From positions 15,430 to 79,429 of the forward strand of contig JBBTVD010000009.1 of NCBI GenBank assembly GCA_038063415.1: 64,000 nt of DNA, given 5' to 3'. A program made the translations under genes and the position numbers. Positions 4,078-64,000 of this stretch are shown here, piece after piece (position 1 is the stretch's first letter; the number at the start of each line of letters is the position of its first letter). This DNA comes from Patescibacteria group bacterium. Its GTDB lineage: Bacteria; Patescibacteriota; Microgenomatia; Levybacterales; UBA12049. The notes below the pieces were generated by a model. It made no database searches and was not told the origin of the DNA. It was given only the letters and a program-made list of their open reading frames with translations.

Positions 4078-4084
4078 AGTTAAT

Positions 4085-16297: not shown

Positions 16298-16300
16298 GCC

Positions 16301-16364: not shown

Positions 16365-16388
16365 ATTTAAAAGATAGGAAGAATAATT

Positions 16389-20697: not shown

Positions 20698-20719
20698 TTA
20701 TTTTCTTTATCTTATTTAT

Positions 20720-20806
20720 GTCATTCCTGCGAAAGCAGGAATCTAGAAATGCCATACTAAATTCATCTCAGGGATATCTGGATTCCCGATCGGGTCGGGA
20801 ATGACA
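20720..20806. repeat. palindromic MITE/REP-like element, subfamily B
   Basis: GTCATTCCTGCGAAAGCAGGAATC hairpin plus GGATTCCCGATCGGGTCGGGAATGACA hairpin. It ends 8 bp from the stop of the TPR gene at 20814. Confidence 0.7.
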
Positions 20807-23872: not shown

Positions 23873-25429
23873 TTAATACAATATCGCTAAGTCATACGGA
23901 GGTTCTCCGTTGGGTTCAGGGGTTGTGTAGATGCCTTCTGGTGACTCAAGTGCGTCCAAAAGCTGAATGTATCTATAAAAAACAGCATTGGTCCAGCCAA
24001 ATCCTTGTTGGTCTTCATATTTTGCATTACTGCCGGAGTGGCCTGTCTCTCCATTTAGTTTCTCAAAGAAGGTTTGATGTTTACGAAAAACGTTGGCATG
24101 GGCTTTAACAGCATTTTGCATAATTCCTTTAGCTTCTTCCATATAGCCGTATTTAAGTAATCCTATGACCGTAAGGTATTCGAGTGGTGACCAGATATTC
24201 GGATAGTCCCATTGTTTTGGCATGATTATTTCTTCAATAGCCGGATGATATCGTTGTTGGATCTTTGACAGATCAATATCATGGGCAAGTGACTCTTTGG
24301 CTCCAATGGTTAGTCCATATGGCGTTACAAACTTATGGAGCTTTTCTACCATTTGTTTTGCTTGATATTTGGTTGCGAGCCCTGCCCACATTGGGACATA
24401 CGAAGCCAGGGAAAAATAATGCCCAATTTTCTTCGCGATATAATTGTAGTCATAAAAGAATGCTTCATTTGGATCCCACATCAGCTTATGCATTTCTTTT
24501 TGACGTTCTCTGGCTTTTTCCTGCCAGTACTCCCCTTCTCTGTCATCTCCAAGTATTTTGGCAGCCAGGGCAAAATCTTTTTCGTATTTATACAAATAAC
24601 TATTGAGATCAATTGGGAAGAACTGATCACAACGGTTGTAAAACCGTGAAGTCATATCCCAACCTGATTCAAGCTCTGAAGAGTGAGCATAGCCAATATC
24701 CCGATCTCCGTAACGAGCCAAAAGAGAATCTTTGACACTGTGGTTATACGCACGAATTTTATCAATCCACACGATTTCATATTCTTTTTTTGCTACTTCC
24801 ATTGCTTTTTTAAGCCAGTTCTTCTTGGTTAAGGTATATAGTTGTCGTCCAATCCCTTTTCGTACATAGTCATTGCTGGAATTCAGTGGTGAAAGATAGG
24901 TGTCAAGGATCATTGAAGAAAAAAATGGAGGCTGAGACCGTCCCATAGATGCAGGGGCGTTAAAGTTAGGAATAATTTGGTACATATGAAAAAGATACAT
25001 AAAGTTCTCTATCATTTCTCGCATGAGCCATTCACGTCGAGTACCCATCAGTCCACGAAACATGAAATAACTATCCCAATAAAAGATATAGGTAAATTTA
25101 TTATCATTCGGGACAAAATAATAATGTGGAAGCTTAATAAAGTTTGGGTTGACATTTACGGTAGTCGTAATTTCTCGTGAGAACTGTAATCTATTGGGAA
25201 TGGTCGCTACTCGATAGCGTAGCTTCATTTTGGAAGGTTTATAAATGATTTTGTTCCAGTAGCTGTCAATGTATGCAAGGCAGTCTGCGTACTCTTTACT
25301 CCACATAAAGTTAGTATAAGATATCTTGGATAAAGTATAAAGCATGAATATTGAAAAAGAACTGAAAGCTGTTGCATCTATGGCATTGTATGTCGTAGAA
25401 TAATGCATGGCTGCCCTATGAAAGATCAA
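23873..25429 (-). CDS. trehalase (glycoside hydrolase family 37)
   Basis: Matches both GH37 signature regions: ...FYWDSYFMFRGL (cf. R-F-x-E-x-Y-x-W-D-x-Y) and PKQWDYPNIWSP (cf. Q-W-D-x-P-x-[GAV]-W-[PAS]-P). The N-terminal start is uncertain and overlaps the divergent xer start region. Confidence 0.65.
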   Translation of the reverse strand: MIFHRAAMHYSTTYNAIDATAFSSFSIFMLYTLSKISYTNFMWSKEYADCLAYIDSYWNKIIYKPSKMKLRYRVATIPNRLQFSREITTTVNVNPNFIKLPHYYFVPNDNKFTYIFYWDSYFMFRGLMGTRREWLMREMIENFMYLFHMYQIIPNFNAPASMGRSQPPFFSSMILDTYLSPLNSSNDYVRKGIGRQLYTLTKKNWLKKAMEVAKKEYEIVWIDKIRAYNHSVKDSLLARYGDRDIGYAHSSELESGWDMTSRFYNRCDQFFPIDLNSYLYKYEKDFALAAKILGDDREGEYWQEKARERQKEMHKLMWDPNEAFFYDYNYIAKKIGHYFSLASYVPMWAGLATKYQAKQMVEKLHKFVTPYGLTIGAKESLAHDIDLSKIQQRYHPAIEEIIMPKQWDYPNIWSPLEYLTVIGLLKYGYMEEAKGIMQNAVKAHANVFRKHQTFFEKLNGETGHSGSNAKYEDQQGFGWTNAVFYRYIQLLDALESPEGIYTTPEPNGEPPYDLAILY

Positions 25430-26356
25430 AAGCTTACTGGACTTATCATTGATTTTCTCGAGTACTTAGAAGTCGAAAAAAATTGTAGTAAGTTAACCCT
25501 TCGGGATTATAAGCATTATCTTGATGTCTTTGTGGAGTGGCACTCCTCTTCCCTACCTGGTAAATCAATTGAAAATCTTACCTTGGTTGATGTTCGCAAG
25601 TTCCGTGTTTACCTGGCTGATTTGACTGATAAAAAAGGCCAAACCCGTAAGAAAGTTACCCAAAATTACTATGTCATTGCGCTTCGGTCGTTTCTTCGGT
25701 TTCTCCTCAAAAACGACTATAGGACTTTGGAGCCTTCCAAGATCGATCTGCCTAAGACAGAAAGTCGTAGCCTCAAATTCCTTGAGCGTGAGCAAGTAGA
25801 TCGCTTGGTAACCATGCCTGATACCTCAAAGGAAGAAGGCATTCGTGATCGGGCGATTCTGGAGCTGCTTTTTTCAACAGGGCTTCGTGTCTCTGAATTG
25901 GTAAGCCTGAACCATCAGCAACTTAATCTAGAAAGACGTGAATTTGGGATTATTGGCAAAGGCAGACGTTCCAGAATTGTCTTTATCTCAGATCGAGCTG
26001 CTGAATGGATTCAAAGATATCTTGATGCTCGGATCGATGTCTTTAAGCCGCTTTTTATCCGATACTCAGGCCAAGTGATGGAAGAAGATGAAGGTGAGAA
26101 GATGCGTCTGACAGTACGAAGCATTGAGCGAATTGTAAAAAAATATACGGAGCTTGCTCGGCTTCCTGTGGATGCTACGGTGCATACGCTACGACATAGC
26201 TTCGCGACAGATCTACTTACCAATGGTGCTGATTTACGATCAGTACAGGAAATGCTCGGACACAAGAATATCGCGACAACGCAGATTTATACGCATATCA
26301 CGAACAAACAGCTTAGAGAAGTACACAAGGCTTTTCATAGTGGAAATAAGGAATAA
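25403..26356 (+). CDS. tyrosine site-specific recombinase (XerC/XerD-like)
   Basis: 317 aa. N-terminal SAM-like core-binding domain, and a C-terminal catalytic domain with R..(LRVSEL), HTLRHSFAT, and LGH...TTQIYTH containing the catalytic Tyr. Confidence 0.8.
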   Translation: MHGCPMKDQKLTGLIIDFLEYLEVEKNCSKLTLRDYKHYLDVFVEWHSSSLPGKSIENLTLVDVRKFRVYLADLTDKKGQTRKKVTQNYYVIALRSFLRFLLKNDYRTLEPSKIDLPKTESRSLKFLEREQVDRLVTMPDTSKEEGIRDRAILELLFSTGLRVSELVSLNHQQLNLERREFGIIGKGRRSRIVFISDRAAEWIQRYLDARIDVFKPLFIRYSGQVMEEDEGEKMRLTVRSIERIVKKYTELARLPVDATVHTLRHSFATDLLTNGADLRSVQEMLGHKNIATTQIYTHITNKQLREVHKAFHSGNKE

Positions 26357-28220: not shown

Positions 28221-28249
28221 GGATTCCTGGTTTACCGCCAGGAATGACA
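28221..28249. repeat. partial palindromic element (single hairpin GGATTCCTGG-TTTA-CCGCCAGGAATGACA), subfamily B half-copy
   Basis: One stem-loop carrying the ...GGAATGACA terminus, between the stops of convergent genes. Confidence 0.5.
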
Positions 28250-28267
28250 ATTAGATATTTGTTTGTA

Positions 28268-29055: not shown

Positions 29056-31233
29056 TCAACTTCTTTTTTTTGAGTATCCTAACTCCCACTCTAACTGAGA
29101 AATAGCCCCTTCTGCTTTAGCTATTAGGGAAGCATGTTCTGTTGAATCCAGTAGTGCTATAAATTGACGATATGACTCAATCGCCTCTTCTGGCCTGCCG
29201 AGAAAAACAAGGGTACTCCCTCTATTATAATAAGGAGGGGCAAAATGACTATCAAGAGCAATTGCTTGATCATAATCATGTAGCGCTTCCTCTGGCTGAT
29301 TGAGACGTTTAAGAACATTCCCTCTATTATAATAAGGAGGGGCAAAATGACTATCAAGAACAATTGCTTGATCATAATCATGTAGTGCTTCCTTTAGACG
29401 TCCAAGACGCAAAAGAGCATTGCCTCTATTGTTATAGAAGGTAGAAAAATGCGGGTTGAGAGCAATTGCTTGATCAAAGGCTACCAATGCCTCCTCTGGC
29501 TGATTGCTCTCAATGAGGGTATATCCCACGTTATTAAGTAGTTGTATATCCTGTCCATATTCTGATTGAAAGAGTGTGACAGAATTCAGTAGTCCTTCCC
29601 TGATCCATTTTGGCATCTCACTCCATGGCATCTCAGAGGTTTGTAGTTCAAACGAAATTCCCCTTGGATCAGGATTGTGGGCAAACGCAACTAAGTCAGC
29701 AACCGTCGTTTGTGTACCATCGTGATTAGTTCCGAAAATCATTTTGTTCGTGAGTCGCCCATTCAGTGAAGGTTTTAGCATGTCCCGCCATTCGATGTTC
29801 CCATCACTGGTTACCAAAAAAAGCAGCGAATGTTCCGGAACATTACCCACCAAATACCTGAGCCCTGCCTCCTGCATTAAAGCTCCACCAAGTTCTGAGG
29901 CACCAACACAATTTACACACTGCGTTGCAAGAGCTTTTTTGGGAGTATCTGCATCTTCGTTACGAGGATAGCTGCTTACCACTTGCTGAATGAGATCAGC
30001 AATTTTCCGTTCTTTTTTACTGATTGCTGCTCTGTCTTTTGTTTGCCTGACAGTTTCAAGCTCTACCCGCAGCCGGTCTATTTGTACCGCTTCACGCAAA
30101 GTTTCTTCACCATCTCTCCAATGTAGATGAGTATGCCTTACTGAATCAGGAAGCTTATCAAGTGGCATAGTGTCTGCGAGTAACTGCATACCTCTACGAA
30201 AAACAGCGTTAACTAGCTCCCGCCGCGGGGCTTCCATAGGTTTCTCTAGTGCTTTTTCTACTTTATTTAAAAACGTGCTATGAATCGGTGTGTCACTTCG
30301 ACGTGATCTTGCTTCCTGCTCAGTATGAGAATCATGAGGAACAGTCCGTAATTCTCCACGTGCTTCCCGCTGTTGTAGTGTGAATGATAACTCCGCTATT
30401 CTGAAAAAATGTGCTATCTTCTCTGAACGATACTCCTCATCTCCCATGATTGGTTCTTGTGGTCTTTGTCTATATGCCTCTTTTCTTACTGCATGGACAA
30501 GCACATTGCGTTGAGGAAGCATCATCTGGATCGCTCGATAGCTTTTCACCTTTGCTTCGTCTACTCTTGATGCAGGATCTGTCAGAAAAGAAAGAAATTC
30601 CCTGCTCTCTTCCTCAGAAAGGATCTTCCCTGTAGTGACAAAAATGTCAAGACAGAGTGTTCTTTCAGGGGAAAGTGTTGCCTCCGCTATTGGTGGCTCT
30701 GTTCCTTTACCAAATTTAGTCCCATAAGTATATAACGCTTCTCCTAACGAACCTGCTATTTCTGCTGTGGCGTGAGCTCTTTCTCGTGTCTGATCGCTCC
30801 CTGATTTCAGCATGCCACGGCGGAGACGTTGCTGATTGATTTGCTCTACCTTGTCACGTCGGGAGTAAAAATAAACGCCTGTGTCTCGCAGGAACGTCAT
30901 CAATTCCCGCATTTTACCGGACACTTCACGTTGTCGTTCTGGTTTATCCTTAAACGTGTCTTTATCTACCTCTTCTAAAACACCAACGATATCCCACAAC
31001 TGTAATTTCTCATGCAGATATAAAATCTTTCCCCCGTTTGCTCCTTGCTCCAGTATATTGTCCTTGCTTTTTGCATCCCAAGCTTTTTTATCTATTATCT
31101 GTGGTAGGATATGATTATTTTCTGAACACCATACTGTAAAAAAGCCTCCCACTGCGGGATTACTGAAGACCCTTTGTTCAGTTTTTTCCGCAACGGCAAA
31201 TGGTACTTCTCTTCCTTTAAAAGCTTCACTCAT
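29056..31233 (-). CDS. large protein: N-terminal unknown region, central transglutaminase-like Cys-His-Asp core candidate, six C-terminal TPR repeats
   Basis: 725 aa. The C-terminal approx 200 aa are six near-identical 34-aa TPR units (..A.HDYDQAIALDSHFAPPYYNRG..L..L.R.EEA); the underlying DNA is a near-perfect tandem 102-bp repeat. The central QCVNCVGASELGGALMQEAGLRYLVGNVPEHSLLFLV..DGNIEWRD fits the C...GIP.R.V.G..P.H......W...D transglutaminase-like core pattern. Confidence 0.5.
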   Translation of the reverse strand: MSEAFKGREVPFAVAEKTEQRVFSNPAVGGFFTVWCSENNHILPQIIDKKAWDAKSKDNILEQGANGGKILYLHEKLQLWDIVGVLEEVDKDTFKDKPERQREVSGKMRELMTFLRDTGVYFYSRRDKVEQINQQRLRRGMLKSGSDQTRERAHATAEIAGSLGEALYTYGTKFGKGTEPPIAEATLSPERTLCLDIFVTTGKILSEEESREFLSFLTDPASRVDEAKVKSYRAIQMMLPQRNVLVHAVRKEAYRQRPQEPIMGDEEYRSEKIAHFFRIAELSFTLQQREARGELRTVPHDSHTEQEARSRRSDTPIHSTFLNKVEKALEKPMEAPRRELVNAVFRRGMQLLADTMPLDKLPDSVRHTHLHWRDGEETLREAVQIDRLRVELETVRQTKDRAAISKKERKIADLIQQVVSSYPRNEDADTPKKALATQCVNCVGASELGGALMQEAGLRYLVGNVPEHSLLFLVTSDGNIEWRDMLKPSLNGRLTNKMIFGTNHDGTQTTVADLVAFAHNPDPRGISFELQTSEMPWSEMPKWIREGLLNSVTLFQSEYGQDIQLLNNVGYTLIESNQPEEALVAFDQAIALNPHFSTFYNNRGNALLRLGRLKEALHDYDQAIVLDSHFAPPYYNRGNVLKRLNQPEEALHDYDQAIALDSHFAPPYYNRGSTLVFLGRPEEAIESYRQFIALLDSTEHASLIAKAEGAISQLEWELGYSKKRS

Positions 31234-31403
31234 GATCTAAGAATAGCACAATATTCTAAGTAGCCATATAATCAGCACCTTTTTGACTCTTTGAGCTATA
31301 AGATCTTTTTAAGAGAATGTGTCTAAGTCCACGTTCTGCCTTGTTGTTATCAGCAGTAGGAATACCTAGTTTAGTAAGACAGGTAGAATGGTCTAGTGAA
31401 CAG

Positions 31404-32093: not shown

Positions 32094-32978
32094 TTATCGA
32101 TAGTTATTTATAGTATCTCGTAATTGTGTTGCTTCTTCCCTGGCTTTTTCTGCAAAATCTTGTCCGCTTGAGGCAAAAAGAATACTTCGTGATGCATTAA
32201 TCATCATTCCACGCTTCTTGGTATTTAATCCTGCTTTGACTGTAGCTTCTGTATCTCCACCTTGTGAGCCAATTCCTGGAACAAGTAGTACCATGTCTCC
32301 AACGATCTTGCGAATTTCAGTAAGCTGTGCAGGATACGTCGCCCCCATAAAGATCATCGTATTTGGATAGCCTCCCTGTTGTTGCATGAGTTCTTGTGCG
32401 ACGAGTTCATAGAGTGGCTTTATTTTGTCATGCTGAATTTGTTTCAGCATCTCTTCTCTTGTTTGCTTGGGATCCTGAAATGAATTCAGGATGACATACT
32501 GTTCCTGAAATTCTTTGGCTTCTGGGTTTGAAGAGTGACAACCGACAATAATTCCTTTATCTTTATAGGCAAAATAAGCGCTTAGTGATCCAATTCCCAT
32601 ATACGGCATGACTGTCAAAGCATCAGCTTGAAGATAGTCAAAGATATACTGGGCATAGCCTTTGTTGGTATTACCTATGTCTCCACGTTTGGCATCAATG
32701 ATAACAGGAATCTCTGGATACTTCTCCTTGATATAATCGCAGGTCATTTTGAGCTCTCGCACTCCTCTATCCCCGCGTGATTCGTAAAAGGCGGGATTTG
32801 GTTTATATACACAGGCCAAATCATGCGTGGCGTCAATAATTGCTTTATTAAATTCAAACTGTGGGTATCCTTTTTCTTTAAGAAAATCTGGGAGTTTGTC
32901 AAAATCGGGATCAAGGCCGACACACAGGAGAGAATTATTTTTATCAACAGCGGCGTTTAGTTTGTCATGAAAGGACAT
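32094..32978 (-). CDS. pyrF: orotidine-5-prime-phosphate decarboxylase (type 2, long form)
   Basis: LLCVGLDP and IIDAKRGDIGNT are the type-2 OMPDC signature blocks. The start is taken at MSFHDK (32978), directly after the upstream HAD gene stop; the track ORF extends further into that gene. Confidence 0.8.
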   Translation of the reverse strand: MSFHDKLNAAVDKNNSLLCVGLDPDFDKLPDFLKEKGYPQFEFNKAIIDATHDLACVYKPNPAFYESRGDRGVRELKMTCDYIKEKYPEIPVIIDAKRGDIGNTNKGYAQYIFDYLQADALTVMPYMGIGSLSAYFAYKDKGIIVGCHSSNPEAKEFQEQYVILNSFQDPKQTREEMLKQIQHDKIKPLYELVAQELMQQQGGYPNTMIFMGATYPAQLTEIRKIVGDMVLLVPGIGSQGGDTEATVKAGLNTKKRGMMINASRSILFASSGQDFAEKAREEATQLRDTINNYR

Positions 32979-32982
32979 AGTG

Positions 32983-33624
32983 TTAGAGGTATTGTAACAA
33001 ATCTTTGACGTTTTTGACAATGTGCGTTGGCTTTGCTTTACTGATTTCATCCTCTGCCCCGTAGCCATAATATACTCCTACTGAGTCAATAGCATTTGCT
33101 TGTGCTCCGAAGATATCGTGTTTCCTGTCCCCTATCATGACAAAGGAATATTTTGGTTGGTCAGGAAAAAGAGCTAACGCTTCGGCTACGAGGTCTGTTT
33201 TGTCGGCATTGGAGAGATCGGGCTGTGAGCCGACGACTTTTTCAAAAAATGTATCCAACCCGTGGTGTTGCACAATCTTCTCTGCAATCCAGGTTGGTTT
33301 TGAAGTGACTACGAGAAGTCTGTTCCCTGATTGTTGGAGATTGGTGAGAACAGCAATGATATCAGGATATACGGTACTCTCATACATTCCAGTCGGGTGA
33401 AAATATTCTCGATAATGGAGCACTCCTTCCATCGCCTTTTCCTCGCTAAATCCATAATACTCTTGAAATGATTTATGGAGGGGTGGGCCGATAAATTTGA
33501 GAAGATTTTCAGTGTCTTCTTCAATTCCCATTCTTTTCAAAGCGTGCTGGGCAGCTTTGGTTATGCCAATTTTGGGATCAATGAGTGTCCCGTCAAGGTC
33601 AAAAAAGATAATTGGATAGGCCAT
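32983..33624 (-). CDS. HAD-superfamily hydrolase (phosphatase, subfamily IA)
   Basis: 213 aa. Motif I FFDLDGTLID; motif II (LVVTSK); motif IV (IGDRKHDIFGA). Confidence 0.8.
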   Translation of the reverse strand: MAYPIIFFDLDGTLIDPKIGITKAAQHALKRMGIEEDTENLLKFIGPPLHKSFQEYYGFSEEKAMEGVLHYREYFHPTGMYESTVYPDIIAVLTNLQQSGNRLLVVTSKPTWIAEKIVQHHGLDTFFEKVVGSQPDLSNADKTDLVAEALALFPDQPKYSFVMIGDRKHDIFGAQANAIDSVGVYYGYGAEDEISKAKPTHIVKNVKDLLQYL

Positions 33625-35209: not shown

Positions 35210-35245
35210 GATTTAAGTATAGCAGGTTTATCTGAAGTTTGATCC

Positions 35246-35324
35246 GTCATGCTGGCTCATCCAGCATCTCTTATTGATTCTGGATGCACGCTCCGTCAGT
35301 TGTCGGATCGCTTACCAGAATGAC
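35246..35324. repeat. palindromic MITE/REP-like element (GTCATGCTGG..CCAGCATC hairpin plus GATTCTGG..CCAGAATGAC hairpin), subfamily A variant
   Basis: It lies between the aspartase stop (35340) and the EamA-like gene start. Confidence 0.7.
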
Positions 35325-35339
35325 GGTTATGAGTTAGAG

Positions 35340-36650: not shown

Positions 36651-36677
36651 TGTTTTTACATTTTGTCTTAAGCTCTC

Positions 36678-36760
36678 GTCATTCTGGCTTGTCCACTCCG
36701 ATTTAATCGGAGTCCAGAATCAAATGTGATCCTGGATGCGTTTCACTTACCAGGATGACG
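36678..36760. repeat. palindromic MITE/REP-like element, subfamily A
   Basis: GTCATTCTGGC..GTCCAGAATC plus GATCCTGGATGCG..CCAGGATGACG, upstream of the aspA start. Confidence 0.75.
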
Positions 36761-36944: not shown

Positions 36945-37020
36945 CGTCATTGCGAGGAGGGTTATGCGACGAAGCAATCTTATGAGATCGCCACAACTAC
37001 TTCGTAGTCTCGCGATGACG
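36945..37020. repeat. palindromic element variant with termini CGTCATTGCGAG ... CTCGCGATGACG, overlapping the 3-prime end and stop codon of the DHOD-like gene
   Basis: Imperfect 12-bp terminal inverted repeats share CGTCAT/ATGACG ends with the main family. The gene's last codons (..KRHRETTK) and TAG stop lie inside the element. Confidence 0.55.
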
Positions 37021-38088
37021 TTTTTCTTTTATTTCCTGTGCTAGGAAGGGATTCCACATAGCGCCAGTTGCACTTAGGACAGCATCTGCACCTGCTTCTT
37101 TGTATTCATTGTAATCTTCTGGAGTCGTTACTCCCCCCACGCCTTCGATAGAAAAAGAGTAGCCTTTCTTTTCTCGAATAGTTCTGAGACGTTTGACTGT
37201 ATCAATACCTGCCCATTTGATGGGAGCACCACAGACGCCGCCTTTTGCTCGATTTTTACCAGGGAGTGCTTGTTCACCTTTTTCATTCACGATAATGCCA
37301 GGAAGTGTGTTGATTGCTACAATACCATCGGCATATTCATTGGTGATTGCTGCAATCTTTTCAAGCTGCTGCTGATCTTCATAGTATCCAACCTTTAGAA
37401 GAAACGGTGTGTTGTCACTAACCGCACGTACGCTTTTGCAAATTCTTTCCGTAACAGCAATGTTGTAACATACAAGTCCTTCATCACCATTGTTGGGGCA
37501 TGAGATATCCGCTTCGAGGATTTTTGCGCCGGTTTCTTTTACTTGTTTGGCTACAACTGCCCAGTCCTCAATAAATTCTTGTTGGGTTTGATTGGGGCGT
37601 ACAGTTCCGACAAAACTTCCAACCATTATTTGCCCTTTGCCAGCATAAGAAATTGCCTTCTTCATATCTTCTTGCCAGAATTCAGGTTTTCTTGATGGGA
37701 TATTAAAAGAATTGGTAATCGCGATTGGCTCCTGAAAGCGATCATCCCCGAGTAGTGGCTCTTGCAGTTTCTTTAGCGTCAGATCGCCCTCTACATGTAC
37801 AGAAAGCACATTGGGGAAAGGATGGCAGGGGTAGGTATCGCTACGGACTGTTTTGTACACACAGATATCAAAACCTTTTTCAAAAGCAGCTTTTGCATAC
37901 TTGCTATTGAGCAGGGGGCCTGCCGGTATACCAAAGGGAAGATATACTTTGTGTCCATGATATTCGTATTGTGGTTCTCCTTCTTGTGCATATACTTTCC
38001 CATCAGTAAAGGCTCCAAATGGTCCCTGGTCATAGTTGTCTTCGTAAGATTTTAGTGGATCGTAGAATGGAGTAATAAGCTTTTTCAT
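36997..38088 (-). CDS. dihydroorotate dehydrogenase-family flavoprotein (class 1-like TIM barrel)
   Basis: 363 aa. Blocks ...ISCPN..., ...LLKVG..., and INTLPG...G..GAP.K..GI fit the DHOD/DHPD-like family. It neighbours pyrimidine genes. Confidence 0.55.
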   Translation of the reverse strand: MKKLITPFYDPLKSYEDNYDQGPFGAFTDGKVYAQEGEPQYEYHGHKVYLPFGIPAGPLLNSKYAKAAFEKGFDICVYKTVRSDTYPCHPFPNVLSVHVEGDLTLKKLQEPLLGDDRFQEPIAITNSFNIPSRKPEFWQEDMKKAISYAGKGQIMVGSFVGTVRPNQTQQEFIEDWAVVAKQVKETGAKILEADISCPNNGDEGLVCYNIAVTERICKSVRAVSDNTPFLLKVGYYEDQQQLEKIAAITNEYADGIVAINTLPGIIVNEKGEQALPGKNRAKGGVCGAPIKWAGIDTVKRLRTIREKKGYSFSIEGVGGVTTPEDYNEYKEAGADAVLSATGAMWNPFLAQEIKEKRHRETTK

Positions 38089-38170
38089 ATTTATCTTTTA
38101 AAATATACCATAAGAATAATTCCTGCAATAGCCAGCATTGCTCCTGCTATCTGAGGCAGGTTAAGGGTTT

Positions 38171-53312: not shown

Positions 53313-53352
53313 AGATCCTGGAGTCCTTCCTTCAGTCGTCCCCAGGATGACG
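53313..53352. repeat. partial palindromic element (hairpin GATCCTGGAGTCC..CCCCAGGATGACG)
   Basis: A half-copy immediately upstream of a full copy; it shares the CCAGGATGACG terminus. Confidence 0.5.
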
Positions 53353-53369
53353 ATATTATTTCTTTATCC

Positions 53370-53439
53370 GTCATTCTGGCAAATGAACAAAGTTCATGCG
53401 TCCAGAATCAGCAATCGTCTTCGGCTTACCAGAATGACG
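53370..53439. repeat. palindromic MITE/REP-like element, subfamily A
   Basis: GTCATTCTGGC..GTCCAGAATC plus ..CTTACCAGAATGACG. It ends 6 bp from the ppa stop. Confidence 0.75.
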
Positions 53440-53445
53440 TATAGA

Positions 53446-56033: not shown

Positions 56034-59000
56034 CTAGGTAGCACTTGGGAGTGGTTCCCTCTTTTTTGCTTTTAGTTCTAGTGCCCCATCGCCAATCTGC
56101 AGAGACTCAAGTTCGTTGGTAGGAGGTAAAAGACGGTTTATGGTAGCGGTCATTTTAGGACTAAAGCCAACGAGACCTTCTTCAATCTTTCCTCGGAATA
56201 ATCCAGCAAATTTTGCCAGTCCGCGAAAATTGATAGTGTGATCTTCAACTCTTAAACTGTTTCCTTCGTTTGCAAGAGTTATTGTAAAGGTTGCTTGTCC
56301 AAAGGAAGAATTTACTACCCCTTGTACAACAAATTGCTTCTGTCCAGTTGGTGTATCGACTATTTCCCCTGTTAGCTCTCTAAGTTTGCCCATTGGCAAT
56401 TTTTTCTGTACCTCTGGTTTGGCTAATTCGATTATGGTATCAGGTGTAATTCCAACCTGGAGATCAGGGGTGTTCTCCTCGTCAGTTTCATTTTTAAAAG
56501 CGAGATTCAACGGGATTTTTCCAAATGTCGTATCCATTGCGGTTTCTACGATAAATTGTTTTTTTCCATCTGGTGTCTCCTGGATTCCCCCTGATACATC
56601 TGCCAGTGTCCGAATTGGAAAACGAGTCTTTTGCCAATACGGCATTGTTTCTATTTTATGACGGGCTTTTTGGGTAATGCTTTCAAAGAGTATATCTTGT
56701 GCAATTGTTGCTTGGATATCAGAGCCTGATCTTTCTGGAGAATCTTCATTGGGATCCGCTGTCGGGAGTTCAGGTTGTCCTGTTCGTCTGGCTTTAAGCT
56801 CTAGTACCCCATCTCTAATCTGTAATGAGTCAAGTTCACCAACAGGTAATTGACGGTTTATCGTAGCTGTTACTATTTTATCAAAATTTTCTACATATTT
56901 TTCTATCTTACTTTCAGCTATCTTTTGAACCCGCTTTACTTTACCAATGCCAGTATAGTCAATAATCCTGTCGACAACTTTTAGACCTTTGCCTTCATTC
57001 TCAAAGGTGAGATCAAAAAAAGCTCCTCCAAAGGAAGTGGCAACTCTTCCTTTAAGAAGAAACTGTTTGCTTCCCTCAGGGGTATCGGTTATTTCTCCTG
57101 TTAGTTCTTGTATAGCACCTATTGGCAGAGGGTATTGCTTGACCAGATTACATAACACATCTGGTGGTAAAGTAGCTTGTATAATAGGCTGTTGCTCTGC
57201 TTGGTCTCTTTCTACAACAGCAAGCGCAAAAGAAGTTTCTCCGAATGGTGCTCCTAAGGCTCCTTCTACGACAAGTTCTGGTTTTCCACTTTGGCCATCA
57301 CGAATGTTTTCCGTAAGCTCTTTTAATGAATAACCATAGGGCAAGCGTACAAACTTTTTAGCAAGAGAGGATACCATGTCTGGTCTAATTGCAACTTCTA
57401 TCGTATGTTCTTGTGGTCTTCTCGCTTCACGTTCTGATGACGTTTCGTCTGCGGCATCTCTGTTTACTCTTTCCAAAAGGGGTTCTCCCCTGTTTTGAGC
57501 TGGAGAAGGTTGTGTTTCTTCCGTTACATCTGCAGGAGAAGAATGAGTTTGTAATCCTTCTGGTGTTTGGATAATCACTTTGGAATGTCCTCCATGGTGT
57601 ATCGTTGCATCATCACCTCTCGTTGTATGAAGAATATTTATGATAAGATCGTTCTCGGTCGCCGTTGCTATGCCAATAGGTGGTGCAAATATTCGAGGAT
57701 CTCTTTCTCTCTTAATAAATTGTTGTTCAGAAAGACGTAAGTCACCCGCTGATGGTTCTCCCTGATATATCTCTCCAAGCGACAGGTGATGTGTATGTAT
57801 TAGTGCTGTGGGTGCTCCTCCTTCATCCCCCGGCCAGTATGATTGCAAGAATCCTGCAAGATTTAATTTTCTTGCTAATTCTCGGGCTTTTTCTTCTCGT
57901 ATTTCTGCACGTATCATTACGTCTCCAATTCGAGGTTCTTTAAAATCAGAAGCCGGTGCTGCAAATCCGGCGATAAAGATATCGTTGTTATTATCCCTTC
58001 GTACCCTTATTCCCTGAAGAGAAAATGCTAATTCCCGGTTACGATCATTGGAAGCTTCTGCATAGCGTTGTATCATTGCTCTCGCGACGTTTGAAATGAC
58101 AAATACAGGTTGGTTTTGAGGGAAATCTGGCTCCCTTGCCATACTTTCTGTTTGAGCAGTGAGTTGTTTATACAAGGGTAACATATCCACCTGATCCTTT
58201 TTAATTTCTCCTGTTTGATAATCAACCATACGTTCCGCTATTTCCCTTGCAATAACATCTGATGACAATATGTCTTCTCCAGCTCTAATAGCTGTGGCTT
58301 CATGAGGTTGCAGACGTCTATTTAAAACCGCAGAAGCTTCCATCATTCTTTGATGTGAACTTTCATCACTACCTAAGGGATCAGATTCAGGAGAAGTAAG
58401 TTCAGGGGTAGAAGTTTGCCTTGTCTCAGGAGGCGTTGGCTCTGGTTGGTCAACTTGTTCATGTTCTCTCTGGCGGAGAGAAGGTTCTTGAAGTTTTTTA
58501 GCAAGCTTATCAAAGCCACTAATACTTGCTTGATCGGTTATCGGATTCTCTACTTCAGTAACAATTTCGGGTGCCAGTCTTCTGCGTTGGTCTGGAGATT
58601 GTGAAAGAATACTTCTTGCATCAATGTCTGCTTGAATTACTCTTACGATATCCAGATGTCCAAATGTCCGTTGGAAAAAGGGGGTAAGTCTTTTCAGGCG
58701 AGAAAGAGCTTGATCTCGATTTACCACTCCGTTTTGATCAAATTCAGCAAGGAAGTTCTGTGCAAAGTCTTCATAGAGTGCTTCTTTCTCTAAATATTGG
58801 TCATAAAATTGGTTAATTTGGTTTAGTTCAAGCGTATTTTCTACAGGCACACCACTTGCTGTTAACGTAGCTTTTACTGCTTGTTGTGTTTTTTCATCTG
58901 CTCCATCAAACCATGTTTTAAATCCTCGTCTCCAGTTTGTGTATTTCTCCTCGTCTGTTCCCTCTTTGGTGGCATCATACGCTTGGCGGTCCTCCCAGGC

Positions 59001-59282
59001 AACCTGAGCAACAAAGCGTGAAGGAAGTTGAGATGTTTTCATTTCTGGTATTTCAGAAATAAAGCCATTTCTTTCAGCAGGGGTAATTGTTTGTTTTGGA
59101 TTACTGAGACGAGGATCTCGAGAGCTCATCAAAAATCGTGCTGTCTCAGGAGAGATACCTTGCGATTTTTCTTTCTCTGGTATACGAACGTTTTTTGCCC
59201 ATTCAGCAGGTCTACGGATACTTTCAAGGACAGCTACCATACTACTGCAGTATACCATGCCAGAACGAGAGAAGAATTTCAA
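56034..59282 (-). CDS. giant hypothetical protein (1082 aa) with tandemly duplicated approx 190-aa C-terminal modules
   Basis: Long uninterrupted ORF. The C-terminal third contains two homologous modules, each with two sub-repeats (GEItDTPeGsKQF...SFG.A.F.lTf.NEG..L.V.D, ending TATINRqLP...EL.SLQI.DG.LELKA.). No recognisable catalytic motif. Confidence 0.6.
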   Translation of the reverse strand: MKFFSRSGMVYCSSMVAVLESIRRPAEWAKNVRIPEKEKSQGISPETARFLMSSRDPRLSNPKQTITPAERNGFISEIPEMKTSQLPSRFVAQVAWEDRQAYDATKEGTDEEKYTNWRRGFKTWFDGADEKTQQAVKATLTASGVPVENTLELNQINQFYDQYLEKEALYEDFAQNFLAEFDQNGVVNRDQALSRLKRLTPFFQRTFGHLDIVRVIQADIDARSILSQSPDQRRRLAPEIVTEVENPITDQASISGFDKLAKKLQEPSLRQREHEQVDQPEPTPPETRQTSTPELTSPESDPLGSDESSHQRMMEASAVLNRRLQPHEATAIRAGEDILSSDVIAREIAERMVDYQTGEIKKDQVDMLPLYKQLTAQTESMAREPDFPQNQPVFVISNVARAMIQRYAEASNDRNRELAFSLQGIRVRRDNNNDIFIAGFAAPASDFKEPRIGDVMIRAEIREEKARELARKLNLAGFLQSYWPGDEGGAPTALIHTHHLSLGEIYQGEPSAGDLRLSEQQFIKRERDPRIFAPPIGIATATENDLIINILHTTRGDDATIHHGGHSKVIIQTPEGLQTHSSPADVTEETQPSPAQNRGEPLLERVNRDAADETSSEREARRPQEHTIEVAIRPDMVSSLAKKFVRLPYGYSLKELTENIRDGQSGKPELVVEGALGAPFGETSFALAVVERDQAEQQPIIQATLPPDVLCNLVKQYPLPIGAIQELTGEITDTPEGSKQFLLKGRVATSFGGAFFDLTFENEGKGLKVVDRIIDYTGIGKVKRVQKIAESKIEKYVENFDKIVTATINRQLPVGELDSLQIRDGVLELKARRTGQPELPTADPNEDSPERSGSDIQATIAQDILFESITQKARHKIETMPYWQKTRFPIRTLADVSGGIQETPDGKKQFIVETAMDTTFGKIPLNLAFKNETDEENTPDLQVGITPDTIIELAKPEVQKKLPMGKLRELTGEIVDTPTGQKQFVVQGVVNSSFGQATFTITLANEGNSLRVEDHTINFRGLAKFAGLFRGKIEEGLVGFSPKMTATINRLLPPTNELESLQIGDGALELKAKKREPLPSAT

Positions 59283-59939: not shown

Positions 59940-61274
59940 TTACTCATAAAACTTTTTATGTTTTACTTTCTCTGGTAGAAAAGATTGTTCCTCTTTGGGC
60001 CCTACATACTTATCTGACCAGGTATATTCTTTAGCATAGCCCAGGTTCTTCATTAACTTCGTTGGAGCATTGCGGAGGTGCAACGGTATGGGTTCATTTG
60101 GGAATTCATAGACTGCTTGCTTGGCTCTGCCGAGTGCATTGGTTACTGCTCGAGACTTCTTGGCACTTGCGAGATAGACAACCACATGAGCGAGAGTGAG
60201 TTGTGCCTCAGGCATACCGATTTTGGTTACAGCTTCAAATGCCTGGTTTGCTTGAATAAGAGCTCCCCTGTCTGCCATGCCGATATCCTCTGAAGCAAAG
60301 ATTATCATACGTCTGGCGATAAACTTGGGATCTTCGCCATTTTCAAGCATGCGGGCGAGATAGTAGAGTGCAGCATCGACAGCACTTCCCCGCATCGATT
60401 TGATAAATGCACTGGTGATGTTGTAATGCTCATCTGCTTTTTTATCATAGAGTCCTGCTGATTTGGTCTGAAAGATTTCTTGAATGATTTCCACAGAAAT
60501 AACGTCATTGCGAGACTTCGAAGAAGTCGTGGCAATCTTTTTTGTATGAGATTGCTTCTCTACGCTCGCAATGACGAGAGCAGTTGTTGCAGCCATCTCA
60601 AGACCGTTGAGCATAATTCGAGCGTCACCCCCAGAGAGTCGGATAAGTAATTCTTTTGCATCAGGGGTGATGGTTTTTTTGTACTTCCCTATCCCCCGCT
60701 CTTTGTCGACAAGTGCCCGATCAATAATCTTGCCAAGGTTCGTAGGTGTAAGACTCTGGAGGACAAAAACCCGACAGCGAGAAAGAAGCGCACTAATCAC
60801 TTCAAAGGAAGGATTTTCAGTAGTCGCTCCAATGAGGATAAGGGTACCATTCTCTACATATGGCAAGAGTGTATCTTGTTGCGCTTTATTCCAGCGATGA
60901 ATTTCATCAAGGAAGAGAATAGTCATTCTGACTTGTCCAGCATCTTTTCTTGATTCTGGAGTCCTCACTTTGTTCGTCCCCAGAATGACGTTTGCTTTTG
61001 TTGCTCTTTTGTTCTCCTCCGCCTCGCGAATAATCTTCATCAGATCTGCTTTGCCTGTCTCAACAGCTGAGAGATGATGAAAATCGGCTCGTGCTGCCTG
61101 TGCAATCAGATTTGCGAGTGTTGTTTTGCCACTTCCTGGTGGTCCCCAAAAGATCATTGATGAGATGTTTCCCGTCTCAAGCATCTTTTGCAGCAGTTTA
61201 TTTTTGCCGACGAGATGCTCCTGTCCGATGTATTCTTCGAGTGTCTGTGGCCGCATTCGGTACGCGAGGTTCAT
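59940..61274 (-). CDS. rarA: replication-associated recombination protein A (RarA/MgsA AAA+ ATPase), carrying an in-frame palindromic-element insertion
   Basis: Walker A GPPGSGKTT, Walker B ILFLDEIHRW, sensor-1 GATTENP, arginine finger SRCRVF, and the C-terminal MgsA domain. About 20 extra residues (..NVILGTNKVRTPESRKDAGQV..) lie between the IREA helix and Walker B relative to E. coli RarA. Confidence 0.85.
   Translation of the reverse strand: MNLAYRMRPQTLEEYIGQEHLVGKNKLLQKMLETGNISSMIFWGPPGSGKTTLANLIAQAARADFHHLSAVETGKADLMKIIREAEENKRATKANVILGTNKVRTPESRKDAGQVRMTILFLDEIHRWNKAQQDTLLPYVENGTLILIGATTENPSFEVISALLSRCRVFVLQSLTPTNLGKIIDRALVDKERGIGKYKKTITPDAKELLIRLSGGDARIMLNGLEMAATTALVIASVEKQSHTKKIATTSSKSRNDVISVEIIQEIFQTKSAGLYDKKADEHYNITSAFIKSMRGSAVDAALYYLARMLENGEDPKFIARRMIIFASEDIGMADRGALIQANQAFEAVTKIGMPEAQLTLAHVVVYLASAKKSRAVTNALGRAKQAVYEFPNEPIPLHLRNAPTKLMKNLGYAKEYTWSDKYVGPKEEQSFLPEKVKHKKFYE
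60923..60990. repeat. palindromic MITE/REP-like element (subfamily A) located inside the rarA coding sequence, in-frame
   Basis: GTCATTCTGACTTGTCCAGCATC..GATTCTGGAGTCC..CCCCAGAATGACG. It contains a 43-bp segment identical to the holB copy. Confidence 0.75.
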
Positions 61275-61304
61275 AGCGAGGTTATTGTAGCACAGATAAA
61301 TTTT

Positions 61305-62327
61305 TTAGTGATTAAGATCGATCTTTTCCTTATAGACTAAGATTGTTTGAAAGTTTGGTAGGTTAATCAACGTAGTTTTTACTAATTCATGGTTTTTATT
61401 TTTTATTTTCTCCCATTGTTTAGGGGAGAAAATTCTTGTTGTATAGGAATTGTCATCTTCCTCAAGAACCCCTACTCCCATCCAAAATTTAACAATTGCA
61501 TTTTTATTGGTTCCAATAGCGATAGCATTGGGAACAACTGTCGTAAAAACGACTATTTTATCTTCTCCTCGGACGAATTGAGCTCTTTTTGACATTCCTA
61601 CTTCAGCATCGTGGTAGATTGGTCCCATAGCGATAATGTGTTCTTTCTCTGCCTCTGATATTTCTGTTAAATCTTTTGCCCCCTGCCATTCTATATTTAG
61701 TCGGGATGTTCTCATCATCATATCTTGTCGTTCTTGCGATGTTGTCGGATATGTTTGTTTTAGTCGAATAACAGCTTCCTGTAATTCTTCTTCATACTCT
61801 TTTTTGGAGTACATATCTGCTACTCGTACAATCTCCATCTGTATATTGCTTGGGAAGTATTTGCTGAAATGTTTAAGCAACATCGTAAAAGAGTCGAAAT
61901 ATGCATCGGTATCTTTTTTGGGAGTATTATTCATTCGTTCGATAATGATATCGTCTGACGAGAAGGAAAAGAGTACTCCGGGTTTGTATACCTGTAGAAT
62001 AGGAGCCACATATTGACAGTAATAAGCAATCGAGAAAAATTCAGCCCAATCTACTTGTGGTGCTGCATCCAGACTCCACAGTTTATAGCCACCAAAAGGA
62101 TACGTAAACTGAATTGGTTGATTCTTTGTTATATTTGACCTAAGTGCCGCTCGGACTCTTTTTTGGCTGTCTTCCTCCATTTTCCATTTACGGAATTTTT
62201 TGGAGGTAAGCTTTCTATAAATGAAGCCTTCAACGCCTTCTTTTTGAAGTATTTTTTGATCCTCGTCAGTTAATTGGTATGCTGTCGCTGTTTCTAAAAG
62301 AGATTGTAGGTATGCTGTTGGATTCAT
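61305..62327 (-). CDS. hypothetical protein
   Basis: 340-aa ORF with protein-like composition, between rarA and tRNA-Cys. No domain recognised. Confidence 0.5.
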   Translation of the reverse strand: MNPTAYLQSLLETATAYQLTDEDQKILQKEGVEGFIYRKLTSKKFRKWKMEEDSQKRVRAALRSNITKNQPIQFTYPFGGYKLWSLDAAPQVDWAEFFSIAYYCQYVAPILQVYKPGVLFSFSSDDIIIERMNNTPKKDTDAYFDSFTMLLKHFSKYFPSNIQMEIVRVADMYSKKEYEEELQEAVIRLKQTYPTTSQERQDMMMRTSRLNIEWQGAKDLTEISEAEKEHIIAMGPIYHDAEVGMSKRAQFVRGEDKIVVFTTVVPNAIAIGTNKNAIVKFWMGVGVLEEDDNSYTTRIFSPKQWEKIKNKNHELVKTTLINLPNFQTILVYKEKIDLNH

Positions 62328-62331
62328 ATTT

Positions 62332-62406
62332 TGGAGATGCGGGTAGGAATTGAACCTACGTCTTCTGTCTTGCGGACAGACGCCTGAGCCACTCGGCTAC
62401 CACATC
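62332..62406 (-). tRNA. tRNA-Cys (anticodon GCA) with encoded 3-prime CCA
   Basis: The minus-strand read gives acceptor GATGTGG/CCGCATC (one G-U), anticodon stem TCTGT/ACAGA with loop CCGCAAG (anticodon GCA, A37), T-arm GTAGG-TTCAATT-CCTAC, and discriminator T followed by CCA. Confidence 0.75.
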
Positions 62407-62452
62407 GGAGAAATTATAGCATTTTGTTCACCACTAAAGCTATAATGGAGTT

Positions 62453-63322
62453 ATGTTTGGATTTAAACATTTCCGTAAAGGTCTTCTCTTTGCTTTGGTG
62501 GCAGTTTTTTTTGGTTCTATCGTGACGGTAACATTACGATATCTTTTTACCACTGGAGAAAATCCACTGAATATCAGTGCCTGGATACTTCTTCTGGCAG
62601 CCGTCCCGTGGCTTTTCCTTTTTCATAAGCATAACAAAGCTTTTACCAAGCTATCCCTCAAAAATATCTTACTGTTACTTTTTATCGGTATTGCTGGTTC
62701 TGTTGGGGTTAATTACATGCAATCGTTAGCATTAGCCAATACCTCTGCAATCAATTTTGCTTTTCTGTATCGTACGATTATCGTCTTTACCATCATTTTT
62801 GCTTGGCTCTTTTTAAATGAGAAACTCACCTGGCGCAAATGTTTGTTGGTAGTCATTATTCTTGTCGGATCGTACCTGATTACTACGGACGGAAGTACGT
62901 TCTCCTTATCTGCTGGAGATATCTACACCCTCATTATGGCAGCGGCAGCGGCTTTTATCTCAAATATTCTTATTAAGCACACCATGTCCAAAATGCATCC
63001 TGATTTGAGTGGTTCTGTTACTTCTTTGGTTGCTTGTCTTTCTCTTGTGATACTTGCTTATACAAGCAATGTTTTTAGTATCCCACAACATTTCGTTTTC
63101 GTTTGTTTGGCAAGCGTTTGTTATTTTGCCCTTATTATGCTGCGAAATCGTGCCTATGTTCTCTCTACAGCTTCTTTTGTGACGATGATTTTTGGACTAA
63201 CGCCATTGTTTGTTACAATTTTATCGGTCATTTTTTTGCATGAAACGATTGAGTTTATCGAAATTATAGGAGGAATCCTTATCCTTACATCTGCCTTTTT
63301 TGCTGAGAAATATAGAGTCTGA
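62453..63322 (+). CDS. EamA/DMT-family transporter (10 TM, duplicated EamA domains)
   Basis: 289 aa. Two 5-TM halves, each resembling the EamA domain. Confidence 0.65.
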   Translation: MFGFKHFRKGLLFALVAVFFGSIVTVTLRYLFTTGENPLNISAWILLLAAVPWLFLFHKHNKAFTKLSLKNILLLLFIGIAGSVGVNYMQSLALANTSAINFAFLYRTIIVFTIIFAWLFLNEKLTWRKCLLVVIILVGSYLITTDGSTFSLSAGDIYTLIMAAAAAFISNILIKHTMSKMHPDLSGSVTSLVACLSLVILAYTSNVFSIPQHFVFVCLASVCYFALIMLRNRAYVLSTASFVTMIFGLTPLFVTILSVIFLHETIEFIEIIGGILILTSAFFAEKYRV

Positions 63323-63445
63323 GCCTTACGCTTTGTTCTTCTCTATTGCTCGAGTGGTGACAAATAACAGCAGTTGGGTAATAGCAAAGAAAAGTGGCGC
63401 AAAACGAAGTGCTGTTTCGTTTGAAAACATCCATGCTCCAGAGTA

Positions 63446-64000
63446 TTATACTTGACTCGTGGCAAGGGAAAGTAACGTTTGTTCAATAGCAAATCGTGCA
63501 TTAACGTTGGTTGTCTTTATGGTTGTATGTAGCTCTTGGAAAGAACGCAAATATTCCGTCATTCTGGCAAGCGAAGCGCGTCCAGAATCCGTTATCGTTT
63601 GAGATTCTGGAGTCCTCACTTTGTTCGTCCCCAGAATGACGTTTGTTACCATCTCTTCTCGCATAATTCGGATCATACTGGCGATCCACGTGAGTGCTTT
63701 TTCTTTATCTTTTGCAAGGAGCTCTGCCTTTTTGAGCCGTTCCCCGATCGGCATGGTTGGTAGGCGTTCAAAAAACTCTTGAAAATCTTGTCGTTTTTTA
63801 TCAGTGAGCTTTTTTATCACCTCTGGAATAACGATCAGCTGACAGCGAGAAAGAATAGTCGGCAAAAAAGCTTCTTTTGAATCTGCGCTCAGTATCAGAT
63901 ACGTATGTTCTGGTGGCTCCTCAAGTACTTTTAGGAGGGCATTTTGTGCTTCACGGGTCAACAGTTGTGCATCATCAAGGACAATTGCTTTTTGTTTGCC
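63446..64000 (-). CDS. holB: DNA polymerase III delta-prime subunit (HolB-like clamp-loader subunit), N-terminus beyond the window end; carries an in-frame palindromic-element insertion
   Basis: AQNALLKVLEEPPEHTYLIL...LPTILSRCQ is the clamp-loader delta-prime/tau sensor-2 block. The reading frame is open to the window edge, and the peptide TNVILGTNKVRTPESQTITDSGRASLARMTE is encoded by the repeat element. Confidence 0.6.
   Translation of the reverse strand, partial: GKQKAIVLDDAQLLTREAQNALLKVLEEPPEHTYLILSADSKEAFLPTILSRCQLIVIPEVIKKLTDKKRQDFQEFFERLPTMPIGERLKKAELLAKDKEKALTWIASMIRIMREEMVTNVILGTNKVRTPESQTITDSGRASLARMTEYLRSFQELHTTIKTTNVNARFAIEQTLLSLATSQV
63558..63641. repeat. palindromic MITE/REP-like element (subfamily A) inside the holB coding sequence, in-frame
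   Basis: GTCATTCTGGCAAGCGAAGCGCGTCCAGAATC plus GATTCTGGAGTCC..CCCCAGAATGACG. The 43-bp block 63603-63645 is identical to 60952-60994. Confidence 0.75.

Follow-up and report, generated by a model that had tools for sequence, protein, structure and literature searches.

Palindromic repeats, very probably of the CGTC-tagged type, lie in frame in rarA and in a holB-like gene of a Patescibacteria genome

Introduction

Short palindromic repeats that sit in frame in conserved genes have been described as repetitive extragenic palindromic (REP) sequences with a CGTC tag and as Rickettsia palindromic elements (RPEs). In this article we analyse a comparable case in a Patescibacteria genome, where an exact 43-bp block is found in frame both in rarA and in a holB-like gene, within a window of 64,000 nucleotides (the whole stretch of DNA that was analysed, positions 15,430 to 79,429 of contig JBBTVD010000009.1).

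CGTC-tagged REPs were defined by Di Nocera, De Gregorio & Rocco (2013, BMC Genomics 14:522, PMC3733652) as hairpins with an unpaired CGTC or TGTC tag (variant CCTC) and a stem which almost always begins with an A-T and then a T-A pair; the stem has 8-9 bp, the loop 4-5 nt and the 3-nt tail the consensus CCA, other loop lengths being listed as exceptions. Head-to-head dimers predominate, and extragenic copies are located between unidirectional or convergent open reading frames (ORFs), near 3' ends. Intragenic units are in frame, comprise about 20-30 residues, often occur in replication, repair and tRNA-related genes, and are not linked to a transposase. The superfamily takes in RPE-4 (as CGTC-4) and RPE-6 (as CGTC-1) of Rickettsia as well as the dRS3 repeat of Neisseria (PMC3733652).

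The RPEs, as summarised in PMC10969869 and PMC3733652 from the original reports (Ogata et al. 2000, Science 290:347; 2002, Genome Res 12:808), are palindromic repeats in frame in conserved proteins, nearly half of their copies being located in ORFs. Two further kinds of small repeats have to be considered. REP doublets forming hairpins (REPINs), which belong with REP-associated tyrosine transposases (RAYTs; Bertels & Rainey 2011; PMC3116915, PMC3337134), are likewise inverted doublets which can fold to one long hairpin, are present in many copies, persist at orthologous sites and show identical types within a genome. [quoted passage not shown] In the literature searched, no report of palindromic, REP or RPE elements in Patescibacteria (the candidate phyla radiation, CPR) was found, which does not prove that none has been published.

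Results

The 43-bp block (GATTCTGGAGTCCTCACTTTGTTCGTCCCCAGAATGACGTTTG) occurs at 60952-60994 and at 63603-63645 with 0 mismatches and has no further exact copy in the window; the chance expectation for a duplicate of this length was 0 in 100 dinucleotide shuffles. Both copies lie in frame within minus-strand ORFs and encode the same peptide N-V-I-L-G-T-N-K-V-R-T-P-E-S (NVILGTNKVRTPES across the block), and the arms ATTCTGG/CCAGAAT account for the palindromy that a sequence-only reading of the window had reported. The observation of an exact in-frame duplicate in rarA and a holB-like gene was thus confirmed. A separately deposited ENA contig (L001, Hainich groundwater, ERZ1292645) agrees with the window letter for letter along 14,061 bp, both copies included. 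Given this second deposit, and as the element is also present in orthologous holB genes of other studies, an assembly artefact behind the two copies is very unlikely.

The first host gene, rarA (59940-61274, minus strand), encodes replication-associated recombination protein A of 444 aa, a name given by NCBI and in agreement with the Pfam domains RuvB_N, AAA, AAA_assoc_2 and MgsA_C. An identical protein is recorded at NCBI for a metagenome-assembled genome (MAG) labelled 'Patescibacteria group bacterium', and the rarA product matches E. coli MgsA (3PVS) with E=3.5e-96. The second host is a gene of the clamp-loader delta' type, the 3' part of which occupies 63446-64000 (minus strand); its N-terminus lies beyond the window end, and the full length of 250 aa was recovered from L001. 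Its product matches Pfam DNA_pol3_delta2 (PF13177) and has 2GNO as best PDB match. The earlier reading spoke both of holB and of a HolB-like protein; against TIGR00678 (holB) the protein scored 98.5 bits, below the NCBIfam cut-off of 180.6, hence HolB-like is the right wording. Both hosts had also been called essential; conserved housekeeping genes they are, but essentiality is an assumption, and rarA (mgsA in E. coli) is not known to be essential.

The block is not a complete element: it comprises just one hairpin module and 4 flanking nucleotides, and the whole elements extend from 60921 to 60990 in rarA and from 63557 to 63641 in the holB-like gene, both on the minus strand. On the coding strand they follow the order C-GTC-ATTCTGG-(20-nt loop)-CCAGAAT-C (the R module), a spacer of 7-13 nt, and G-ATTCTGG-(loop)-CCAGAAT-GAC-G (the inverted L module), so that the two CGTC tags of each element point outward in a head-to-head dimer. 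Between the two genes the R modules agree in every base, but the L modules and the spacers do not. The rarA dimer measures 68 nt from GTCAT to ATGAC (60922-60989). Its R module (60952-60990, minus strand), with tail, 7-bp arms ATTCTGG/CCAGAAT, 20-nt loop and CGTC tag, is the core of the 43-bp block, which runs on to 60994; its L module (60922-60944, plus strand, repeat family D5) is degenerate, with the tag AGTC and two of the seven stem pairs broken (GTCATTCTGACTTGTCCAGCATC). The holB dimer measures 83 nt from GTCAT to ATGAC and folds as DNA with -21.7 kcal/mol (z = -5.8). Besides the shared R module (63603-63641, minus strand) it holds an L module (CGTCATTCTGG-CAAGCGAAGCGCGT-CCAGAATC; 63557-63589, plus strand) which is identical in 33/33 nt to that of its ortholog in a relative, L002. 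The encoded peptides are VILGTNKVRTPES-RK-DAGQVRM(T) in RarA and VILGTNKVRTPES-QTIT-DSGRASLARMT in the HolB-like protein (aa 187-214).

As had been proposed, the RarA segment lies immediately ahead of the Walker B strand (TILFLDEIH) and consists of residues that are extra relative to E. coli MgsA (3PVS) and to insert-free RarA orthologs, which have 398-400 aa and are 70-81% identical. A second element, overlooked in the sequence-only reading, is located in the same gene at 60504-60575 (minus strand); it is 72 nt long, belongs to another subfamily (CGTCATTGCGAG...CTCGCAATGACG, with a 12-nt terminal inverted repeat) and encodes VIASVEKQSHTKKIATTSSKSRND, a segment likewise extra relative to 3PVS. 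Related inserts were observed at this second site in the RarA orthologs P0013, P0028 and P0052.

Structural modelling with AlphaFold2 placed the inserts in predicted disordered, low-confidence loops of both proteins. In the RarA model, built on an ortholog alignment, the AAA+ core reached predicted local distance difference test (pLDDT) values of 80-93; values under 50 were confined to insert 1 (residues 100-113, flanked by helix 75-98 and by the Walker B strand 118-123) and insert 2 (residues 236-254). The HolB-like model, likewise based on orthologs, had a mean pLDDT of 83, and its sole segment below 50 (192-203) falls in the insert, between the long helices 165-187 and 204-229. The peptides predicted to span the junctions are ATKANVILGTNK, TPESR and MTILFLDEIHR for RarA, and EEMVTNVILGTNK, TPESQTITDSGR and MTEYLR for the HolB-like protein.

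The two genes share their modules with a family which is dense in the window. The common plan consists of a CGTC or TGTC tag, a stem opening with AT, a loop, the complementary stem closing with AT, and a tail opening with C. The census yielded 19 perfect hairpins with GTCAT and a 7-bp stem, mostly in convergent pairs, against 0.5 in shuffled sequences (about 40-fold), and a search for terminal inverted repeats gave 5 dimers, with inverted repeats of 11-12 nt, against 0.05 in shuffles. All 19 perfect modules open with (C/T/A)GTC, and every module in the window reads GTC-AT...AT-C, a regularity which is partly built in because the search was seeded on GTCAT. The first tail base is C in 19/19 modules; the tail is CCA in four of them (4017, 20782, 28223, 32472) and CAG, CAA, CTC or similar in the rest. 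Short loops (GGAA, GAAA, CTCGT, CTCAT) are characteristic of the L-type modules and of those resembling CGTC-1. The stems of the subfamilies differ yet stay complementary: ATTCTGG/CCAGAAT, ATCCTGG/CCAGGAT, ATGCTGG/CCAGCAT, ATTCCTGC/GCAGGAAT and ATTGCGAG/CTCGCAAT. Modules of the ATTCCTGC/GCAGGAAT type have stems of 8 bp. When the folding was compared with shuffled controls, most dimers gave z = -4.5 to -5.8, the exceptions being the decayed site-1 element of rarA (z = -2.5) and a dimer at 16300 (z = -2.6). The Rfam scan of the window returned two tRNAs only and no known RNA family at the elements.

Altogether 13 loci were recognised in the window: five are in frame in four genes (two in rarA, one each in holB, pyrF and a DegT-like gene), one extends over the 3' end of a gene and seven are intergenic. 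Tags-outward dimers, or clusters holding one, are present at 10 of the 13 loci. All seven intergenic loci lie between unidirectional or convergent genes, several of them directly 3' of a gene.

Set against the described systems, the window elements share with CGTC REPs the tag, the A-T/T-A start of the stem, the tail starting with C, the outward tags, the location at 3' ends and the in-frame units, and the modules at 4017, 20720 and 28223 come very close to the CGTC-1 description, with a stem of 8 bp, a tail of CCA or CTA and a loop of 4 nt (7 nt at 28223). They differ from CGTC REPs in that Patescibacteria stand outside the five phyla from which these were reported, in that the dominant dimer of the window is an R+L heterodimer, the R loop being often internally structured, in the high intragenic share (5-6 of the 13 window loci, and some 37% of the copies sampled), and in the recurrent occupation of the same protein loops across many lineages. 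With the RPEs they have in common a host with reduced genome and in-frame insertion, at fold-compatible positions, into conserved proteins as tolerated surface segments. The classic RPE-1 has about 100-150 bp and a conserved peptide, whereas the window elements have 60-110 bp and a conserved DNA hairpin, the peptide varying with frame and loop. The link to RPEs comes solely from the class assignment of RPE-4 and RPE-6 in the literature, and the hosts are unrelated. REPINs carry a GTAG tag instead of CGTC/TGTC and are almost exclusively extragenic. MITEs are deleted transposons, whereas the units here are individual hairpin modules, and no parent insertion sequence with matching ends is known for the window elements.

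Relatives were compared at both insertion sites. The gene order holB...rarA...gyrB-ppa-gyrA is common to the window, L002 (GCA_023265495.1) and L004 (ERZ27310481), and the holB insert is found at the same codon in L002, L004, L124, L125 and L126, the last three of which come from further studies; HolB orthologs free of the insert (221-226 aa) exist as well. Because diverged relatives carry the element at the same codon, the holB insertion appears to be old, or else the site has been repeatedly re-occupied. Across homologs this site is taken by several subfamilies in different reading frames. The loops and spacers of the six orthologous elements vary by indels, yet all six lengths (84, 84, 72, 108, 72, 87 nt) divide by 3, in agreement with the expectation of the sequence-only reading; since the frame was kept through repeated indels, the holB insert is presumably translated.

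The stem arms behave differently from the loops. Pairwise comparison of the six holB elements gave 97.4% identity over tags and stem arms (39 nt together) and 97% at the 11 third codon positions within them, against 37-45% for third positions in the remaining holB; moreover, the element of L126 carries one compensatory stem change (ATCCTGG/CCAGGAT). By this comparison the holB hairpin arms show constraint at the nucleotide level: as they are near-invariant while loops and host gene diverge, the hairpin would be either under selection or continually homogenised from other copies.

The site-1 insert of rarA is absent from the syntenic relatives L002 and L004, whose genes lack these 22-23 codons, and this insertion thus seems younger or patchier than that of holB. 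The suggestion of a lineage-specific insertion therefore held for rarA site 1 in the two syntenic relatives examined, but not for the holB insert, which is common to at least five diverged relatives. The best 120 RarA homologs include 29 with an insert of at least 8 residues at site 1 and 18 with one at site 2, and in a neighbour-joining tree the insert-bearing homologs are scattered among insert-free ones. Many different CGTC-type peptides are encoded by these inserts, e.g. VIPTKAGIQ...SGMT, VIPSEVKRSRGIS...ARDD, VIARSEERTTKQS...TRND and SSWSG...LQND. The RarA and HolB loops would be either the few tolerated landing places or sites which, once occupied, are repeatedly overwritten.

The R-module pattern was used to scan the GTDB species representatives and gave at least 119 stretches; the family-wide counts that follow cover the matches listed. 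Almost all of them belong to Levy-, Davies-, Roizman-, Curtiss-, Gottesman-, Shapirobacteria and other Patescibacteria, and judged from these matches the family is widespread in Microgenomates-type Patescibacteria. In 117 family members from other genomes GTCAT is preceded by C in 70% and by T in 22%, no conservation being seen further out, and 75 of these members are paired with an inverted module, the tags pointing outward. About 37% of the copies (45 of ~121 true matches) are located inside long ORFs. According to Pfam, the hosts include genes of replication and repair (polA, dnaX, uvrA, a UvrD/AddA-like helicase, DNA ligase, fpg twice, tatD), of translation and tRNA metabolism (pheT twice, a class I aminoacyl-tRNA synthetase, argS, the CCA-adding enzyme, gatB, rplA, rsmH) and of the cell wall (murB twice, a Mur ligase), besides others. 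Many intragenic copies encode VILG...TPES-(spacer)-DSGQARMT, that is, the R+L heterodimer of the window, and it is common in the family for one genome to carry the same sequence type at several loci (e.g. the JAHJQJ01 loci).

About 25 loci labelled 'uncultured Gammaproteobacteria' (L010-L122, e.g. L042 and L092) were considered as evidence of other hosts and rejected, since they appear to be mislabelled Microgenomates. The label is doubted because L042, a MAG contig of the Third Party Annotation (TPA) section with about 40% GC, shares the pepA-efp synteny with the window, has 75.5% identity in elongation factor P (EF-P) and carries an R+L dimer in the same spacer.

Discussion

The comparison with the literature supports the assignment of the window elements to CGTC-tagged REP dimers of RPE-like behaviour, i.e. 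a known phenomenon in a new bacterial group. Very probably, both copies of the 43-bp block belong to head-to-head dimers of CGTC-tagged REP modules of a mobile type, which are carried in frame and tolerated by their hosts. The proposal of a selfish-type palindromic repeat in frame in conserved proteins, with the Rickettsia elements as precedent, gained support from the intergenic copies, the insert-free orthologs, the low-confidence loops and the CGTC-REP anatomy. According to the proposed course of events, small non-autonomous hairpin repeats would land mostly 3' of genes; the copies which happen to fall in protein surface loops, keep the frame and contain no stop codon could survive selection; and the surviving intragenic copies would be transcribed and presumably translated as disordered loops of 22-28 residues. 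Copying of a module, by transposition or by gene conversion between the rarA and holB copies, might then follow, the direction and the mechanism being conjectural. We infer mobility solely from the number of copies, their patchy distribution and the identical ones among them.

In 241 million JGI metagenome records the exact 38-nt R module had 0 matches, and it was absent among the GTDB-sample matches listed, where the nearest copy differs by 1 nt. As the module was not found in either collection, it is no universal sequence type, and the 43-bp identity points to a recent event within the genome. The block extends 4 nt past the family consensus and the partner modules differ, which hints at gene conversion between two copies of the same orientation 2.65 kb apart; a recent transposition of a module might also have been the source. 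The identity is thus best read as recent copying within the genome, and not as proof of two fresh insertions.

Several results weigh against the assignment to mobile CGTC-tagged REP dimers. The R module deviates from the described CGTC REPs: its loop, 20 nt long in rarA and holB and 14-24 nt in relatives, exceeds the 4-5 nt described; the ATTCTGG/CCAGAAT stems, those of rarA and holB included, pair perfectly over 7 bp and beyond that only imperfectly, instead of over 8-9 bp; and CCA is rare as its tail. A Pfam search of the ~55 ORFs of the window revealed no transposase of any kind, with no match to Y1_Tnp, so that a RAYT (a Y1 transposase), the partner of REPINs, was not seen there either. 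No direct repeats that could represent a target-site duplication are visible at the flanks of the window copies, which separates them from MITEs. A close relative with an empty rarA site was sought in order to define the junction, but the nearest RarA (74% identical) carries a different insert, and no clean pair of empty and filled sites was obtained. Finally, near-invariant holB arms over deep divergence are not expected of simple decaying junk.

A rival explanation is that the intragenic hairpins are functional and maintained by selection, as an mRNA structure (with effects on pausing or stability, or as RNase sites), as a site of DNA binding or processing by a host or element protein, or as a useful extra loop of replication and repair proteins, and are domesticated rather than just tolerated. 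The 97% identity of the arms over six holB orthologs (11 synonymous positions included) against about 40% elsewhere in holB speaks for it, as do the compensatory change in L126 and the fact that in many lineages inserts recur in the two RarA loops and in the HolB loop. Recurrence of REPs in replication and repair genes has been noted in the literature, and the hosts found here include polA, dnaX, uvrA, a uvrD-like gene, DNA ligase and fpg; however, genomes as small as these consist mainly of housekeeping genes anyway. Against a function stand the great differences of the encoded peptides between lineages, the use of all reading frames, the many orthologs without any insert, the L module of rarA, which is already decaying, and the predicted disorder of the inserts; the conservation of the arms could equally result from gene conversion by the many other copies in the genome. 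We therefore consider a selected function improbable. A wider proposition, that the hairpins are actively kept in core replication and repair genes, by selection or by dedicated copying or homing, and targeted to specific loops, i.e. are domesticated or site-specific, would explain at once why the arms stay 97% identical over deep divergence, why different subfamilies settle time and again in the same RarA and HolB loops and why two neighbouring genes have identical modules; it appears to us a little less improbable, though still unlikely.

Far weaker candidates are explanations without a repeat family. Both insertion sites are variable-length loops in their protein families, and the 4 nt by which the identical block exceeds the element consensus would fit conversion, thus ordinary ancestral loops of RarA and HolB joined by a one-off gene conversion between neighbours might be imagined. 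However, the module family occurs at 11 further loci of the window, mostly intergenic, and at more than 100 loci in other genomes, with conserved tags and hairpin arms and with hairpins about 40-fold over shuffles; the intergenic copies already refute such an origin, and we give it hardly any credence. An equally negligible probability belongs to the wrong joining of a repeat into two genes during assembly or binning. The source is indeed a MAG, and assemblers can be misled by short exact repeats, but each copy is flanked on either side by uninterrupted, orthologous coding sequence, a separately deposited ENA contig is identical, orthologous holB elements are present in five other assemblies from different studies, and a 43-bp repeat is shorter than typical reads.

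If the elements are indeed CGTC-tagged REP dimers, their importance would go beyond the two genes. In-frame protein-coding palindromes were long seen as a peculiarity of Rickettsia and later recognised in a few other phyla; the high density of the same superfamily in Patescibacteria may point to a recurrent route to new protein loops in reduced genomes. The interrupted genes are rarA, holB and pyrF here, and polA, dnaX, uvrA, fpg, genes of aminoacyl-tRNA synthetases and that of ribosomal protein L1 in relatives. Such inserts lengthen proteins, disturb the alignment, the domain models and the phylogeny of CPR marker genes, and can pass for lineage-specific functional insertions. The case is of interest because the host phylum is new, a high share of the copies is intragenic, hot spots recur and hairpin arms are conserved within an apparently old insertion, and the thousands of available CPR genomes would make the movement of CGTC REPs and RPEs, as well as selection on the hairpins, testable by comparative genomics.

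Other features of the window

Two further genes carry in-frame copies. The pyrF ORF (32097-33077, Pfam OMPdecase), encoding orotidine monophosphate (OMP) decarboxylase, contains a 69-nt dimer at 32427-32495 (minus strand; fold z = -5.1) which encodes VILNSFQDPKQTREEMLKQIQHD, and this region has no counterpart in the PDB homolog 3QW3. The ORF of a DegT-like aminotransferase (11624-12874, Pfam DegT_DnrJ_EryC1) holds a single L-type module at 11850-11872 (minus strand), in frame and encoding DSGQARMT, where the protein has 6 extra residues relative to 7B0D. Another dimer (CGTCATTGCGAG...CTCGCGATGACG), detected by its terminal inverted repeats, extends at 36946-37019 over the 3' end of the pyrD ORF (37000-38097); the last codons and the stop codon of pyrD appear to be derived from it.

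The intergenic head-to-head dimers recognised in the hairpin census include one at 16300-16364, directly 3' of pepA and upstream of efp. Dimers are present in this spacer both in the window (16295-16370) and in L042 (2705-2985), the flanking proteins being 55-75% identical, so intergenic copies too can apparently persist or recur at orthologous sites. Two more, supported also by folding, lie 3' of an aspA/fumC-like gene (35245-35325) and between pyrD and the aspA/fumC-like gene (36677-36760). Between ppa and gyrA a cluster at 53314-53440 (repeat family D1) is formed by one R module and a 69-nt dimer; this R module is about 80% identical to that of rarA and holB, and the ppa-gyrA spacer of L004 has just 49 nt. 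The classic subfamily resembling CGTC-1 is represented by a dimer at 4016-4080 (TGTC ATTCCTGC GGAA GCAGGAAT CCA ...; repeat family D19), by another at 20719-20806 between convergent genes, found by census and folding, and by the single module recorded in the census at 28222-28251 (minus strand; TGTC ATTCCTGG CGGTAAA CCAGGAAT CCA), likewise between convergent genes.

Apart from the repeats, the sole recombinase of the window is a Xer-type tyrosine recombinase (25355-26353; Phage_integrase with a SAM-like N-terminal domain). Two minus-strand ORFs have no match in Pfam or NCBIfam, one of 340 aa (61305-62327) between rarA and tRNA-Cys, the other of 1,082 aa (56034-59282), in which internal repeats can be recognised by eye (...SFGGAFFDLTFENEGKGLKVVDRIIDYTGIGKV..., ...SFGQATFTITLANEGNSLRVEDHTINFRGLAKF...). 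A large gene for a tetratricopeptide repeat (TPR) protein (29059-31236) contains two tandem direct repeats of 102 nt at 29153-29356, which are 71% identical.

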